Shown here in pieces: positions 6,001 through 27,000 of a DNA stretch of 64,000 nt. Source of the DNA: an uncultured Nitrospiraceae bacterium (GTDB lineage Bacteria; Nitrospirota; Thermodesulfovibrionia; Thermodesulfovibrionales; UBA6898); NCBI GenBank assembly GCA_963811165.1, contig CAWEQH010000004.1:256001-320000 (forward strand). The letters are read 5' to 3'. The position numbers were made by a program. Each line of letters starts with the position of its first letter. Position 1 is the first letter of the stretch.

Positions 6001-9000
6001 CGCGTCTTCCGGAGGTTGATAGACTTTGCGGCCGATGTAAAAGGTCAGCAGCCATGCTCCCGGCAGTTCCCTGTAGGTGCATGCCTTGACATTAGGATGG
6101 AGGGATACAATATCGCACCAGTTTGCCGGAACCTTGAGCACGTTGACAACGCTGCTGAAGGGATAATCGAAGATCCCGTAGACATCCACATGCACTCTGT
6201 CATCTCGCTCAAAAGACTCCAGACAGAGAGGAAGGCCGAAGCTGTTTGTCTCCAACTTGGCCAAGTTCCTGTGATAGGTGTCGAGCAGGATGTCTTCGCC
6301 CTGCCGGGGCTTTTCAACAGCTGAAGCCGGAGCCGGCAGAAAAAAGAATCGCAGCTGCGACCATGAACAGGAAGAATTTCGGAAGGTTTCCGATCTTATG
6401 CATCTGATTCATATATACAGTACTCAGGTTGATAGACTGAAGACTGTAAGTAACATAATGTCACAGTAAAAACTTTCAGAGCAATTTAATTTTGTGACTA
6501 AGTATTGCTTTATTGAATGACCTTCAGCCTTCAACCTAAACACCTGAGTAGTTACGTTCAATGTTTTACATCCATCGGGAAAATAGATGCGCAAACCACT
6601 CCCTGATCCTTGGGAACAAAGGCCTTTTCTTCCAATCTTCCCATTTAATCTGGTCGGACTCGGCAAGGTCCTTGGCAAACATCTTCTCCATTTCGACGGC
6701 AAACTCGTGACTCAGGATAACCGCATTCACCTCGTCATCGCTTAACAGGCTCCAGGAGTCCATGTTGGTTGAACCGACTGTCGACCAGACTTCGTCAATC
6801 ACCGCAGTTTTCGCATGCAGCAGGGCGTTGCGGCGTTCGTATATCTTCACCCCCGCTTTCAAAAGCTCGGAATAATTATACCGCTGTGCCTGCAGTGCCA
6901 GGTTAGAATCGGTGATTGCGGGAACAATAATCTTTACGTCAACGCCGCGTCTGGCGGCATCGGTGAAGGCATCCAGTATCTGGTCGTCGGGGATAAAATA
7001 GGCATTCGTCAGATGGATCGAATGCTCTGCAAAAGTGATGGCGGACACATAGACAATAAAAGTGATCCGGTTGTCCTGCCCGGGCGTGCTGCCGACCACC
7101 CGCACCAGGGCATTCCCCACTTCTTTCAGATCAGGGAAATAGTTCCGTCTCCGAAAGTTCCGGGCCCTTCTGCTTCTGCCAGGTATCAAGAAAGAGTTTT
7201 TGGAATTCAGCCACGGCAGGGCCTTCAATTTGAACGTCTGTGTCACGCCAGGGCAGTGGCGCCTTTTCATCCTTGTCCCTGCGGAAGGGCGTGCTCGAAT
7301 AGACCTTACTGATATTGATACCCCCGGTAATGGCAACTTTGCCGTCGATGATCAAAATCTTGCGGTGGTCCGGATGCGCAAGTAGCCATTTCCCGTGGGC
7401 CTTGAACGGATTTAGCGGATTGAATTCGACCACCTGAATTCCCCCGTCCCGCAAGCGCTGGAAAAAGGGGGCGGGTGTACTGAAACTGCCGATGCTGTCA
7501 AAAATGAGATTTACCTGGACACCCTCCGCCTGTTTTTGCAACAGCAGATCGGCAAATTTGCGGCCTGTTTCATCATCTTCGATGATAAAGGTTTCAAGGT
7601 TGATATGGTCTTTGGCATTCTGTATTGCTTTGAACATTGCGGCATAGGCAGCCTGACCATCAACGAGCAGAGTGACTTTGTTCCCCTTCGTCAGCGGGCT
7701 TTCGGTGACCGATTCTACCACGGCATTGTGGCGTTCCAGAATGTCCGTCGGGTCGACCGATCTCTTCAGCCGTTCCATGATAGCCTTGCTTTTTTGGGGA
7801 GATAACAGTCCTTTGGACGAAACGATTTGAGGAGGTTTCTGTTCAGCCGGCGCCTCATCAATCATTTCAGAGACGTTCGGCAAGGTCGCACATCCATTGC
7901 TGAGGCCCAGGATGGATGCGAGCAGAAAGAATAAAAAGAAAGGCTTGGCTCTTTTCATGGTCTCTTCATTAACTTTAGCACGAACTTTAACACGAATTCA
8001 GAAATCTTCAAAGAGAGCCCATGTAGCATGTCTATGCGCATCATTATGCCGACGGTCACAAATGCATTACAGAGAGAGTCTACCTCTCCAATTATGGAGC
8101 GACATTATGTGACACAAAACTATTTTGTTATAATAGCTACTATGACCGGCATAGAGATTATTGCTGTTGAAGGGAGATCGGAACTAAGAAACTTCATTGA
8201 CCTGCCGTGGAGGATTTATGCTGAGTACCCCAACTGGGTCCCCCCCCTAAAGAATGAGGTCCGCCGGATGCTGGACCCCCGCAAACACCCCTTCTGGGAA
8301 TTTTCCGAGCGCATACTCTTCCTGGCGCGACGTGGTCCGGAAACGGTCGGAAGGATCGCAGGCATTGTAGATCGTAATTATAACAAGTGCCACGGCGAAA
8401 AGATGGGCATCTGGGGATTTTTCGAATGCACTGACGATACGGAGGCCGCAGCCGCCCTCTTCTCTTCCGTTGAGACGTGGGTCGGCCAGAAGGGGATGAC
8501 TTTCCTGAGAGGCCCGCTCAACCCGTCGATGAATAACGAGTCGGGGTTGCTCATCGAGGGGTTCGATTATCCGCCTGCTGTGTCGATGACTTACAATCCA
8601 CCGTATTACCTCAGGCTGATCGAATCGTGCGGCTTCACCAAAGAGAAGGACCTGCTGGCCTTTCTACTGGATGGAGGCGATTACCGGCTGCCTGATTGGA
8701 TGGACCGTCTTGCTGAACGGACCGCCCAAAAAAAAGGTGTCCGCATCAGGCACGTCGATCCGAAGAATCGGGATGCCGAGTTCGCCCTGATCAGGGAGAT
8801 CTACAACGACTCCTGGGCCGGCAACTGGGGTTTTGTCCCCCTGACGGAAAACGAGATGAAGGACATTCAAAAAAGTGTAAAGCCCTTCGCGGACCCGGAC
8901 CTGGTGTTCTTCATCTATTATGAGAATGAGCCGGCGGCGGTCTGCGTGATCTTTCCCGACATCAACCCTTTGCTCAAGCGCCTCAACGGCAGGATAGGCC

Positions 9001-24000: not shown

Positions 24001-27000
24001 GAGCAGCGTGAAGACACTTTATCCAGCTCTCTTAAACTACAGAGGGTAAATCTTCCGCTTCTTGCAGCGCTTGCGCCGCCCGGGCACAGGGTCACAATCG
24101 TCGATGAGGCCTTTGGACCCGATGACACTAACCAAGATGTGGACTTGGTGGGTATCACCGTCATGACTGATGTTGTGCCAAGGGCCTATGATATCGCTGC
24201 TGCCTATCGCCGGAAGGCCGTGAAGGTGGTGATGGGAGGGATACACCCCACGGTATTGCCTGACGAAGCTTTAGAGCATGCGGACTCTGTAGTCGTGGGA
24301 GAAGCGGAGGGTATCTGGCCACAACTTATATCTGATGCGGCCTCTGGGCAGATGCAAAGAATATATCGGGCCGATAAAATGACCGACCTCCAGGGCCTGC
24401 CCAAACCCCGGCGGGATCTCTTCCCCGGAAGCAAAGGTAAAGGCTATATCCCGATCCCGATCGGCGTCGAGACATCCCGGGGATGTCCGAACGATTGTGA
24501 ATTCTGTTCTATCGGACGGACATTGGGGCGTCAATATCGGGTCAGGCCGGCTCTGGAGGTGATTGCCGAGATAGAGGCCATTGATTCCCGTCACATTTTC
24601 TTTGTCGATGACGCCCTTGCGCTGAACCGGAATGAAGCAAAAAAGCTCTTTACTGAAATGATACCTCTTCGGCGGCTATGGCTGGGGCAGGGGACGGTGT
24701 CGTTGGCTGAGGATGTGGAACTGCTCAGGTTGATGAGACGTGCGGGGTGCATGGGGCTTTTGATCGGATTCGAATCTGTACAGAAAGCAACCCAGAATGA
24801 GGTGAAGAAAATAAAGAACCTGAGGATCGATTTTTATGAGGCGATGCGTCGGTTCCATGACGAAGGTTTCGGTATTCTTGGCGCGTTTGTTTTTGGCTTT
24901 GATTACGAAAACAAGGACGTGTTCGACCAGACCCTTGAGTTTGTAATGAGGAGCCGCATGGATTGTGCCGAGCTAAGGATTCTCACTCCGTATCCGGGGA
25001 CCCGGCTATATGATCGCCTCTTAAGCGAAGGCAGGTTGTTCGAGCGTGACTGGTGGCTCCGTGGATATCCTCCTGATACACTTCTTTATCAACCCAGGGG
25101 CATGACTACTGAGGAGCTCATTAAGGGTTTCGCCCGCTTGAACAGACAAGCATATTCCTTCGGAGCAATAACAAAGCGATTCTTTGGCATGAGCCCGTGG
25201 AAACGGACCCTGTTCGGTTGTCAGGTGTACGCCGGGATCAATCTTTCTACCCGTAAGCGTTATTTCAATGGTCTGAAGAGTCCACAACCATTTGCAGGGG
25301 CTTCCGACTCAACAGTAGAGCGGTAGAGATTACCTATGAAAAGACGGGCAAATATATGATCGTGTGGTATGACGTTGCATTGAAGGGTTTTCTGAAATAG
25401 AATTTTATAGAAATATGGTTATCAGAAGAATTTCATTTATCGAAGCGGGCTCACCCGGCCTGCATATTTTCAGCAAATTTCCCATACCGCGGCTTGGCGC
25501 CGTGTTGCTTTCTACTATCCTCAAGGCAAGTGGATACGAAGTAAAGGCATTTATTGAGGACGTTGCCGAACCCGATTGGTCATTCATTGAGAACTCCGAC
25601 ATCGTCTGCATCTCGACCATAACGTCGACAGCGACAAAGGCGTACAAAGTAGGGAAACGGCTAAAAGCACTGGGGATGCCGGTGATTATGGGTGGGGCAC
25701 ATCCTACGTTTATGCCCGATGAGTCCCTGGAATATGCCGACTTTGTCATACGGGGGGAAGGAGAGCATTCCCTTGTGGAACTGCTTGAGCACCTGGTGAC
25801 CGGTACCCCGGCATTAGCGGGTATCAAAGGGCTTTCGTACAGGGACAGGGACGGGAGGAATGTTCACAACCCCTCCAGAGAATTTATCGAAGACCTCGAC
25901 AGCCTCCCCGAGCCTGACTTCTCCCTTGTCCATAACTGGACCCCGTCAAATACCTATCCTGTTTCGACGTCGAGGGGCTGTCCCTATGACTGCAAGTTCT
26001 GCTCAGTCATCCAGATGTTCGGAAGAAGCTACCGTTTTAAATCCGTTGAGGCAACGCTGAGGGAATTGAAATATGTAGCATCAGCGTCCAAGGCGACCAA
26101 GTTCATTGTTGACGATAACTTTGCGGCTAATAAAAGAAGGACCAAGGAAATCCTCAGGGGGATGATTGCAGAGGGAATTAAGACGCGATGGTCTGCCCAG
26201 GTAAGGACAGATGTTGCCAGAGACCCGGAACTTCTCCGCCTGATGGCTGACTCGGGCTGCCATACTTTGTACATCGGCTTTGAATCCATCAATCCCGCGA
26301 CGCTTGAAGACTATAATAAAAGGCAGGGACTGCAGGATATTATTTCCTGCATAAGGACAGTAAGGGAACACGGTATCCATATCCACGGAATGTTCGTCCT
26401 GGGGGCGGACACTGACGATGTGGAGACCTTCCGCGGGACTGCTGATTTTGCAAGAGACCATGGGATTGACACGGTACAGTTCCTGATTCTTACACCGCTG
26501 CCGGGAACACCGTTCTTTCACGACATGATGGAAAGCGGAAGACTTCTCCATAGGGACTGGAGTAAATATGATGTCCAGCATGTAGTTTTCAGCCCCCGGC
26601 TCATGTCACCGGCCACGCTGCAGATAGAGACCTTCAGGGCAATGGGTCGTTTTTATTCATGGAGATATATTTTCAGGCATCTGGCCAGATTGGACTTCCA
26701 CTACGCAGCGATCGGACTCTTTGGCAAGACAGCCGTTCATAAATCCCTGAAGGCGTCTTCCGTCTATCTTGCTGACCTCGGCCTCAGCGCCGGTTAAAAG
26801 AAAGCCGTCCGGAGCATTTTTTTTCGCATAGGCACGACCTCTTCTTCACGTCTCAAACCCTGATAGTTTCTCCTCAGCCGATTCGTCGGTCTTGCGCTCA
26901 AGTTCTGCAATAACCTGCGCACCTAATAAAAGGATTAATGCTACAGCTTCCACACTGAGAAGGGCGACCACTACCGTGGCGATAGAACCATAAATTAAAT

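Follow-up and report, generated by a model that had tools for sequence, protein, structure and literature searches.

Beside a homologue of bacterial ceramide synthase (bCerS) in an uncultured Nitrospiraceae bacterium lies a giant polyketide-type synthase, and the locus prompts one to ask which compound the synthase makes and which enzyme takes its product. The locus was examined within a stretch of 64,000 nucleotides, here called the window, and among related synthase loci. Read from sequence, the data suggest that a giant synthase with its own version of a ceramide synthase, present in many oxygen-avoiding bacteria, would yield ceramide membrane lipids whose fatty tail is custom-made and probably very long.

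Gene content of the locus

The open reading frames described in an earlier note were recovered in place, all on the plus strand and either overlapping or separated by at most 130 nt (Table 1). The Pfam ranges given for the synthase were reproduced exactly (NMO 358–623, KS 715–1122, AT 1278–1561, two PP-binding, KR 2078–2246, PS-DH 2498–2646), as were the calls downstream of it (ACPS, FemAB_like, the ABC pair, Sulfatase and two B12-binding radical SAM proteins). The cluster is real as described, apart from two genes. That of a 278-aa lipoprotein had been left out, and the second radical SAM gene, counted as a member, has an orthologue of at least 80% near the synthase in only two of the related loci; with a GC content of 0.511, close to the 0.509 of the genome, versus 0.545 for the whole stretch, it probably lies outside the conserved unit. 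The bCerS-like frame is open from 8028 and the FemAB-like frame from 18684; homologue lengths and, for the latter, an ATGA overlap with the preceding gene place the likely starts at 8142 and 18882.

Table 1. Features of the locus. Positions run along the 64,000-nt window unless contig C8 is named; frequencies of neighbouring genes were counted over 68 related synthase loci.
Feature	Position	Strand	Basis
bCerS/YghO-family tandem-GNAT N-acyltransferase, synthase-linked paralogue clade	8142..9266	+	homology, predicted fold, clade
Predicted lipoprotein, 278 aa, putative permuted NlpC/P60 (papain-like) fold; accessory	9271..10107	+	alignment, low-confidence model; 24/68 loci
Single-module iterative type I FAS/PKS, 2648 aa, ER'-ER-KS-AT-ACP-ACP-KR-DH	10187..18133	+	Pfam, NCBIfam, motifs
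Probable degenerate enoyl-reductase copy ER', N-terminal, SGF in place of GGH	10187..11221	+	weak: 22% to active ER, E 0.016
FabK/PfaD-type enoyl reductase (ER), EAGGHVG, H496	11258..12229	+	PF03060 358–623; TIGR03151 358–681, below cut-off
Ketosynthase (KS), C917/H1058/H1094	12329..13705	+	Pfam, motifs
Acyltransferase (AT), GHSLGE (S1363) and MAFHS	14018..14869	+	Pfam, motifs
ACP 1, LSIRSSRL, predicted attachment Ser1665	15086..15283	+	Pfam, motif
ACP 2, near-identical duplicate of ACP 1	15410..15607	+	Pfam
Ketoreductase (KR), SGGATGI, Y2228	16418..16924	+	Pfam, motifs
PKS-type dehydratase (DH), C-terminal, H2376, E2566	17300..18124	+	Pfam, motifs
Phosphopantetheinyl transferase (PPTase); core	18151..18885	+	PF01648; 59/68 loci
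FemAB-like tandem GNAT; accessory	18882..20123	+	PF04339, PF13480; 27/68 loci
ABC-2 (DrrA/NodI-like) ATPase; conserved in the window's clade	20130..21077	+	Pfam, NCBIfam; 49/68 loci
ABC-2 permease	21074..22189	+	Pfam, NCBIfam; 49/68 loci
EptA-like membrane phospho-transferase, sulfatase fold; accessory	22171..23955	+	NF028537; 17/68 loci
B12-binding radical SAM, weak DUF4070; accessory but recurrent	23959..25326	+	Pfam, NCBIfam; 26/68 loci
Second B12-binding radical SAM	25415..26797	+	Pfam; orthologue near synthase in 2/68 loci
bCerS, C8 set	contig C8 531161-532261	-	present in genome
Spt, C8 set	contig C8 532261-533487	-	present in genome
CerR-type epimerase, C8 set	contig C8 533448-534410	-	present in genome

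The synthase

The synthase belongs to a family set off from other synthases by a gap in scores. The catalytic motifs of KS, AT, ACP, KR, DH and ER are all intact in one module, and each is retained in 88–99 of 99 full-length homologues, depending on the motif. Neither a release domain nor a CLF was found with the Pfam and NCBIfam profiles, the former as had been claimed, and by its motifs the protein is a reducing, release-less iterative FAS/PKS. The ER' region gave no Pfam match. The AT motif is probably of the malonyl type, so the methyl branching once ascribed to the synthase itself is unlikely. In ACP 1 an Arg stands where Asp is usual, just before the predicted attachment serine, and the xIRS motif was found in 133 of 149 ACP matches across 136 loci; a single ACP match was obtained in 123 of these loci and two in 13.

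The synthase-linked bCerS paralogue

The first gene product is 32.5% identical to YghO of E. coli BL21 over 382 aa (E 4e-68), in agreement with the earlier figure of about 32%, and 36% identical to the bCerS of a separate Spt-bCerS-reductase set, which is indeed present on contig C8. The match to YghO lies within the homology rule for bCerS given in PMC11334938 (E ≤ 1e-30, at least 50% coverage). The predicted model (pLDDT 90.6) is that of a soluble acyltransferase with a tandem GNAT fold, the best structure match being 5kf1 (E 3e-15). Co-occurrence with Spt and CerR was seen in the host's own C8 set and in the enrichment of Spt among synthase carriers, with exceptions. In a tree, the synthase-linked genes form a clade separate from canonical bCerS/YghO, the wide clade having an SH-aLRT of only 81.6.

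Linkage across genomes

A bCerS-type gene lies directly upstream of the synthase in 43 of 47 assessable genome loci, defined as those that include the start of the synthase together with the 1.5 kb upstream of it (42 were counted automatically and L028, with an overlapping ORF call, was added by hand); in a deeper metagenome set it is adjacent in only 30 of 48 (24 counted, 6 by hand). The synthase occurs in 21 of 401 Desulfobacterota-phylum genomes, 19 of them found by search and two, G619 and G471, on contigs that end before the KS. Synthase-type bCerS was found in 19 of the 21 carriers versus 2 of the 380 others, and an Spt-like gene in 16 of 19 carriers versus 71 of 382 others, with cut-offs fixed after the scores had been seen and related genomes that are not independent. 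Distances over 22 genomes correlated at r 0.85 for KS and bCerS and 0.18 for KS and alpha-oxoamine synthase (AOS); for the 18 genomes with a stand-alone AOS the values were 0.79 and 0.49.

Exceptions were found. In a five-locus subclade (L045, L056, L059, L188, L189) the gene next to the synthase is not a synthase-type bCerS, and the three genomes searched gave only a 26–29% homologue. G246 has canonical bCerS only, searches of G659 and G683 found neither bCerS nor Spt, and G386 has a synthase-type bCerS without the synthase. In one synthase branch (ten metagenome loci and G659) an LpxJ-family (DUF374) acyltransferase occupies the bCerS position directly upstream. Such a swap is expected if the synthase serves as an acyl donor to the transferase next to it; LpxJ itself is a late acyltransferase of lipid A (PMC6148475), and no such gene was found in the window or the host genome.

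The earlier statement that the cassette lacks an AOS holds for the window but not for all of its relatives, where an AOS lies within 10 kb of the synthase in 25 of 68 loci, 14 of them as an acyl-ligase-ACP-Spt fusion. E. coli AasR matches the ligase part at 35% identity, so the base would have its own fatty-acid supply; an AasR-AcpR-Spt system has been described (PMC9386255). In G680, Spt, bCerS, CerR, a glycosyltransferase, the synthase and the PPTase form a single run. The earlier caveat of a guessed amine acceptor is weaker than it was put, given that more than a third of the relatives carry Spt-type genes in cis. Little can be read from the presence of Spt in the host, as the gene is near-universal in that bacterium's own order.

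These AOS genes, enriched in carriers, would also suit a synthase that makes the chain of the sphingoid base, with Spt or AOS using serine or alanine to unload it, and a bCerS paralogue adapted to that unusual base acylating it with an ordinary fatty acid. P. fluorescens SgaA and SgaB, which give C24–C28 sphinganines, are a direct precedent (PMC12134224), and the co-evolution of bCerS and KS is accounted for equally, since it would also fit a bCerS tuned to an unusual base. However, the AOS occurs in at least three unrelated forms and tracks the KS poorly, its commonest cis form brings its own ligase and ACP, the gene adjoining the synthase is bCerS rather than AOS, and the LpxJ replacement is a swap of acyltransferases; we consider this arrangement unlikely.

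Another possible acceptor is a non-sphingoid amine, such as an amino acid, an amino sugar, lipid A or a protein; the product would then be an amino lipid with no relation to ceramide. The identity to YghO and the C8 bCerS is only 32–36%, the predicted fold is that of tandem GNATs in general, the DUF374 branch is taken to show that the synthase can serve other acceptors, and among 41 carrier genomes that lack a local AOS (MAGs, completeness not given), two queries found no Spt-type gene in 11. Yet Spt is enriched in carriers, a CerR-like epimerase occurs in 23 of 68 synthase loci, ten Spt-bearing carriers have the synthase-type enzyme as their sole bCerS-like match, and about 60 positions are common to synthase-linked and canonical bCerS, making such an acceptor distinctly improbable.

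Accessory genes

In the lipoprotein alignment H101, E114 and C200 are invariant. Its model, of low confidence (pLDDT 60), matched the fold of TseH best (Z 7.2, with a caution line of 8; rmsd 3.5, 115 aligned; Atlas TseH-like score 0.89), followed by PPPDE and YiiX. The His-before-Cys order (H101, C200) would fit permuted NlpC/P60 proteins (TseH, PPPDE, PLAAT), and the protein is predicted to be a putative hydrolase or transacylase. The EptA-like protein keeps T283 and the SDHG motif and is a candidate head-group transferase; it scored below the NCBIfam cut-offs (88 bits versus 500, and at most 56 bits versus at least 1075 for MCR models). Both radical SAM proteins are under every NCBIfam cut-off, reaching at best 105–171 bits versus cut-offs of 481–578 for the HpnJ, HpnR and ladderane-cluster type models. 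The methylase role proposed for the two, and the proposed export of the product to the outer membrane, are putative.

For the ABC pair the highest-scoring models are DrrA/DrrB, both below cut-off, and the synthase is spread patchily, in 4 of 201 genomes of the host phylum; both would agree with a cluster for a secreted small molecule whose DrrAB-like pair is a self-resistance or export pump. The neighbours, however, are membrane-lipid enzymes (Spt, CerR, PAP2, EptA-like, LpxJ, MprF-C, glycosyltransferases) and the deep branches mostly lack this ABC pair, so a secondary metabolite is very improbable.

Proposed pathway

The earlier proposal that a synthase-made acyl chain reaches a sphingoid amine through the ceramide-synthase-like enzyme is independently supported by the neighbourhood, the genome-wide co-occurrence and the matching trees. 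From these directly established features, together with the genes, domains and motifs, we infer each reaction below and the direct hand-off; a long chain is suggested by analogy to ArsA and SgaA only. In the reading that we favour, and regard as rather probable, the synthase builds the N-acyl chain and the synthase-linked bCerS places it on a base made by Spt, opposite to the arrangement in Pseudomonas SgaAB.

The PPTase would prime the synthase ACPs, and iterative malonyl condensation with full reduction (KR, DH, FabK-type ER) would yield a fatty acyl chain on the synthase's own ACP. Unloading by the dedicated bCerS paralogue is proposed because the synthase is without a release domain; as a precedent, the ACP of the type I FAS ArsA passes its chain directly to the partner enzymes ArsB/C (PMC6274091). 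The paralogue would then N-acylate the 3-keto-sphingoid base from Spt, which is encoded on C8 in the host but in cis, and frequently within an AasR-AcpR-Spt-like fusion, in many relatives. CerR would reduce the product and the ABC-2 pair may export it, with optional tailoring by the EptA-like, PAP2, FemAB-like, lipoprotein and B12 radical SAM gene products.

Comparison with known systems

The Spt-bCerS-CerR pathway with AasR/AcpR (Caulobacter; E. coli BL21 ECD_02850-02854) is matched here by homologues of bCerS/YghO, CerR, Spt and AasR, which lie in the cassette, in its neighbourhood or in its genome. Features of the present system alone are the dedicated type I synthase, the second bCerS clade linked to it and the frequent fusion of AasR-AcpR-Spt; the available passages of PMC11087976 and PMC9386255 contain none of the three. 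SgaAB of Pseudomonas fluorescens MYb115 is likewise a single-module iterative PKS system tied to sphingolipid synthesis and very long chains, its products being sphinganines and their phosphoglycerol forms (PMC12134224). SgaA feeds the base via SgaB, whereas the fixed partner here is an N-acyltransferase, a distinction from SgaA drawn from its published description. The window holds no such two-gene unit of an AOS beside an iterative PKS, and the AOS of relatives stands at varying positions.

The type I FAS ArsA/ArsD from Azotobacter vinelandii (classed as Type P by Shulse and Allen, PMC3098273) is also release-less, and passes C22–C26 chains directly from ACP to partner enzyme (PMC3098273, PMC6274091). 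Those partners are type III PKSs making alkylresorcinols; no type III PKS gene was found in the window or among the annotated recurrent neighbours of the synthase. The likeness to ArsA is drawn from description, ArsA having presumably a similar domain order with an N-terminal ER. The KS-AT-ACP-KR-DH order, a FabK/PfaD-type ER and an adjacent PPTase are shared with the PUFA synthases (PfaA/PfaD) and with the 'secondary lipid synthases', which are uncharacterised (PMC3098273). Here, in contrast, the ER is fused in cis, neither KS-CLF nor FabA-type DH subunit genes were found among the recurrent neighbours, and the synthase scored 459 bits with the PfaA equivalog TIGR02813 versus a cut-off of 1010. 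The Type S synthase of Desulfobacterium autotrophicum (PMC3098273) could be related to this one.

Implications for anaerobe lipids

Anoxic Black Sea water and sediment contain ceramides and 1-deoxyceramides with often odd-numbered acyl groups of C28–C39, up to C42, which are tied by co-abundance to Desulfobacterota and/or Bacteroidota and, according to the authors, have been reported from no living organism (PMC11334938; PMC12619533). Of the classified lipids, sphingolipids account for up to 14% in euxinic water and for about 21% in the studied sediments, and the available passages of the cited lipid papers name no pathway for their unusually long tails. It is a tentative and rather doubtful idea that the C28–C39 chains have their missing source in this synthase family and its dedicated bCerS. 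About 5% of the Desulfobacterota-phylum genomes sampled have the unit, which is also present in several other phyla, and the cluster is fairly likely to act as a portable supplement to ceramide synthesis in bacteria. The minimal unit is three genes (synthase, PPTase and bCerS paralogue), and the origin of the tails is therefore open to heterologous expression.

If the proposed pathway is right, it would be a second way of coupling a PKS to sphingolipid synthesis and would supply a gene marker for a lipid biomarker. The ABC pair would be a candidate ceramide exporter, a step listed as unidentified in PMC11087976. On the more doubtful reading, in which the synthase family is also the source of the Black Sea chains, methylation by the B12 radical SAM enzymes would be one way to odd carbon numbers. 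Anaerobes would then have a general route to very-long-chain acyl-ACP, and an exchangeable acyltransferase would decide where the chain goes, bCerS leading to ceramide and the LpxJ-like enzyme to another lipid.

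Gene Organization and the Synthase

The region had been described as a co-directional gene cluster and was borne out as such, with ten genes running in the same direction; the domain content claimed for these genes was borne out by Pfam. All of the genes listed in the earlier note were present, but a lipoprotein gene had been overlooked. The positions of the features are collected in the table below.

Positions of features within the window
Feature	Position	Strand	Description
Mla lipid-transport genes and AsmA-like gene	398–5447		Adjoin the cassette
Cardiolipin-synthase-like PLD gene	6566–7958	-	Split over two frames
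Co-directional cluster	8028–26797		Ten genes
Ceramide-synthase-like (bCerS/YghO) N-acyltransferase gene	8142–9266	+	First gene of the cluster; 8142 is its likely start
Lipoprotein gene	9271–10107		Invariant His and Cys; permuted NlpC/P60 fold, tentative
Synthase gene	10187–18133	+	2648 aa, ER'-ER-KS-AT-ACP-ACP-KR-DH
Two large surface protein genes	39650–47562	-	One with 11 InlB B-repeat-like domains, the other with DUF6242 and beta-propeller

The catalytic residues of the synthase are all intact (ER H496; KS C917, H1058 and H1094; AT S1363; KR Y2228; DH H2376 and E2566), and each catalytic motif was present in 88–99 of 99 full-length homologues. The ACP motif reads IRSS in place of IDS; the host synthase carries two ACP copies, with a single copy in 123/136 loci. 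Residues 1–345, which weakly match the ER domain (22% identity, E 0.016), are probably a dead copy of it. Thioesterase, reductase and condensation domains are all absent from the synthase, so the chain must be unloaded by another enzyme. A predicted complex of the bCerS with the ACP scored 0.00, which counts neither for nor against such a hand-off. Sequence searches of the PDB with the bCerS-type and FemAB-like proteins gave no useful match, and a Foldseek search with the lipoprotein gave nothing at E ≤ 0.001.

The closest named relative of the host is a Thermodesulfovibrionales MAG (L001, 90%). Compared with the intact copy in L001, the split PLD gene shows one 1-nt gap. MlaE and MlaF just upstream of it and a FabF gene at 467.9–469.2 kb on contig C4 are also fragmented, and these breaks are probably assembly indels. 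An Mla set lies near the cassette in five loci (L001, L002, L025, L042 and L067), and an AsmA-like gene also adjoins it in relatives. Promoter and terminator counts were close to the level of shuffled sequence.

Conservation of the Cassette

The synthase family comprises about 40 clusters at 50% identity, with at least 48% identity over the ER-KS region followed by a gap to the modular PKSs. Conservation was measured over 68 loci on genome contigs, many of them incomplete, so that the fractions understate the true values. The most frequent neighbors of the synthase were the PPTase (59/68), the ABC pair (49/68) and the bCerS-type gene (44/68), and the accessory ones were the FemAB-like gene (27/68, corrected from 31/68 by removing short matches of ~90 aa from an overlapping frame), the first radical SAM (26/68), the lipoprotein (24/68) and the EptA-like gene (17/68). 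Two B12-radical SAM genes had been assigned to the cluster and both are present, but the second lies near the synthase in only 2/68 loci. The EptA-like and PAP2 genes occur together in four loci and so are not mutually exclusive, which gives no support to the idea that they are interchangeable.

Where the synthase start and 1.5 kb upstream were retained, the bCerS gene was directly upstream in 43 of 47 loci, one of them added by hand. Exceptions to the pairing are the subclade L045/L056/L059/L188/L189 and genomes G246, G659, G683 and G386, and in a deeper metagenome set 18 of 48 assessable loci break the adjacency. The subclade has no upstream bCerS; L045 and L056 have a downstream bCerS homolog of 26–29% identity. 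Six loci of a deep branch (L100, L101, L112, L193, L194 and L214) have a divergent fatty-acyl-reductase-like gene (NAD_binding_4) upstream of the synthase, possibly a reductive release route, and a different B12 radical SAM downstream, often with MatE.

Named carriers belong to Nitrospirota, Desulfobacterota, Planctomycetota, Verrucomicrobiota, Acidobacteriota, Aminicenantes and Binatia; the only named species among 30 representatives checked was Pseudodesulfovibrio methanolicus (WP_338667717.1). One bin held two cassettes (L003 and L064) and genome G241 three KS copies, reflecting duplication or mixed bins. A plasmid search returned short KS pieces only. None of the sequencing runs listed as matching was an RNA run, and one DNA run, a soil metagenome that may be the source, contained more than half of the sequence words.

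A Probable Dedicated Ceramide Synthase Clade

In a first, quick tree the 42 synthase-linked bCerS proteins formed one clade (SH-aLRT 100), apart from the bCerS of Spt operons. A wider tree including distant members, with the core thinned to 18 rows, gave a clade of 37 rows with SH-aLRT 81.6. Membership of this synthase type was called at ≥46% identity, and the accompanying gap of 405 vs. 369 bits was noticed after the fact. Across an even sample of 401 genomes of Desulfobacterota, the phylum of G241, the synthase-type bCerS was found in 21, of which 17 are among the 19 genomes with KS and four are not. In two of these four the ER part of a synthase lies right behind the bCerS gene at a contig end, and the revised tally was 19/21 synthase carriers vs. 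2/380 others. The two remaining are G341, where the contig stops 148 nt past the gene, and G386, in which no synthase was found; the gene there (L137) has a B12 radical SAM and glycosyltransferases as neighbors.

In deep branches the synthase and bCerS are often unlinked, yet both are in the genome, and four further deep synthases lie on contigs of the same length as one with a synthase-type bCerS, from which we infer that they share a contig. In 10 deep-branch carrier genomes bearing Spt, the synthase-type bCerS was the sole bCerS-like match.

Association with Sphingolipid Genes

The bCerS-type protein is 32.5% identical to YghO of E. coli BL21, which PMC9386255 lists as the homolog of the N-acyltransferase from Caulobacter. 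Within 10 kb of the synthase, 25/68 loci carry an alpha-oxoamine synthase (AOS): 14 of these are acyl-ligase-ACP-AOS fusions, including a 120-aa fragment, and the other 11 stand alone. Two of the stand-alone ones (L056 and L059) are doubtful, and that of L056 clusters with Kbl/BioF-like enzymes. The three-domain fusions (L005, L021, L022, L047 and 10 more; 1108–1212 aa) resemble AasR-AcpR-Spt in a single chain. A CerR-like epimerase was present in 23/68 loci and a PAP2-family gene in 12/68.

In 41 other carrier genomes, L003 and L010 being excluded as duplicates, the Spt was of the type of the host's separate sphingolipid set on contig C8 in 21, a fusion in four and a further Spt-clade enzyme in five, with none found in 11. 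The 401-genome sample, whose members include kin and are not independent, contained KS in 19 and an Spt-like match in 87 at E ≤ 1e-105 (16/19 KS carriers vs. 71/382 others); at E ≤ 1e-130, both cut-offs being picked by the analyst, the fractions were 10/19 vs. 51/382.

A FabF paralog lies beside the cassette in L007, L019, L020, L063 and L065, adjoining Spt in four, and FabF also abuts the host's own C8 set. In L106 (G538) and L176 a gene for the MprF C-terminal (lysyl-transferase) domain immediately follows synthase-bCerS. Its product is a candidate maker of the lysine-ceramides described in passages of PMC11334938, and the FemAB-like gene could have a similar role.

The Chain Made by the Synthase

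Pairwise distances in 22 genomes, selected for possessing all three genes, gave a correlation of 0.85 for KS-bCerS and 0.18 for KS-AOS; with four fusions removed these were 0.79 and 0.49. The ligase part of the AOS fusion shares 35% identity with E. coli AasR, an enzyme that charges AcpR with a free fatty acid for use by Spt (PMC9386255), and the sphingoid base therefore has its own fatty-acid supply. In a further branch, the synthase of 10 metagenome loci and of G659 is preceded at a distance of 41–449 nt by a DUF374 gene, and bCerS is absent from that position; the search of G659 gave neither bCerS nor Spt. DUF374 is the LpxJ acyltransferase family (PMC6148475), and its product is a candidate enzyme for acylating lipid A or a ceramide hydroxyl with long chains supplied by the synthase. 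Loci with such a gene directly upstream in place of bCerS are L155–L165, L221 and L246. In G680, sister of this branch, Spt-bCerS-CerR-glycosyltransferase-synthase-PPTase form one run, with a bCerS of the canonical type.

Taken together, the distance correlations, the AasR-like ligase, the DUF374 branch and the G680 run favor a synthase that would act as acyl donor to its partner transferase, by analogy with ArsA, which hands its own ACP-bound C22–C26 chains directly to partner enzymes (PMC6274091 and PMC3098273, in part). The same four observations are also compatible with a synthase that makes the sphingoid-base chain, as SgaA with SgaB does in Pseudomonas (PMC12134224, in part), a route that is considered unlikely.

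Possible Relation to Black Sea Ceramides and Novelty

Of the 61 genomes in the family to which a Ca. Desulfacyla MAG belongs, 8 carry the synthase. The genus Ca. Desulfacyla was described from the Black Sea. Passages of PMC11334938 report 1-deoxyceramides with C32–C34, and up to C39, acyl chains, more than half of them odd-numbered, which are known from no organism and correlated with Desulfobacterota and/or Bacteroidota; passages of PMC12619533 add 1-O-acyl ceramides with C28–C32 chains and fatty acids to C42. No biosynthetic pathway for the long chains is named in these passages of either paper. That the synthase family and its dedicated bCerS are the source of these very-long-chain ceramides is a tentative and rather unlikely proposal, because the host is not known to come from the sea and no sulfotransferase turned up in the cassette.

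No published description of the synthase-ceramide synthase cluster was found in the open-access main texts searched. The parts are already known, and within the literature searched it is the pairing of the synthase with a ceramide synthase that appears to be new. Few genomes of the host phylum carry the synthase (4/201), while Spt of the C8 type is near-universal in the host order, so the synthase cassette is an add-on to the core sphingolipid pathway.
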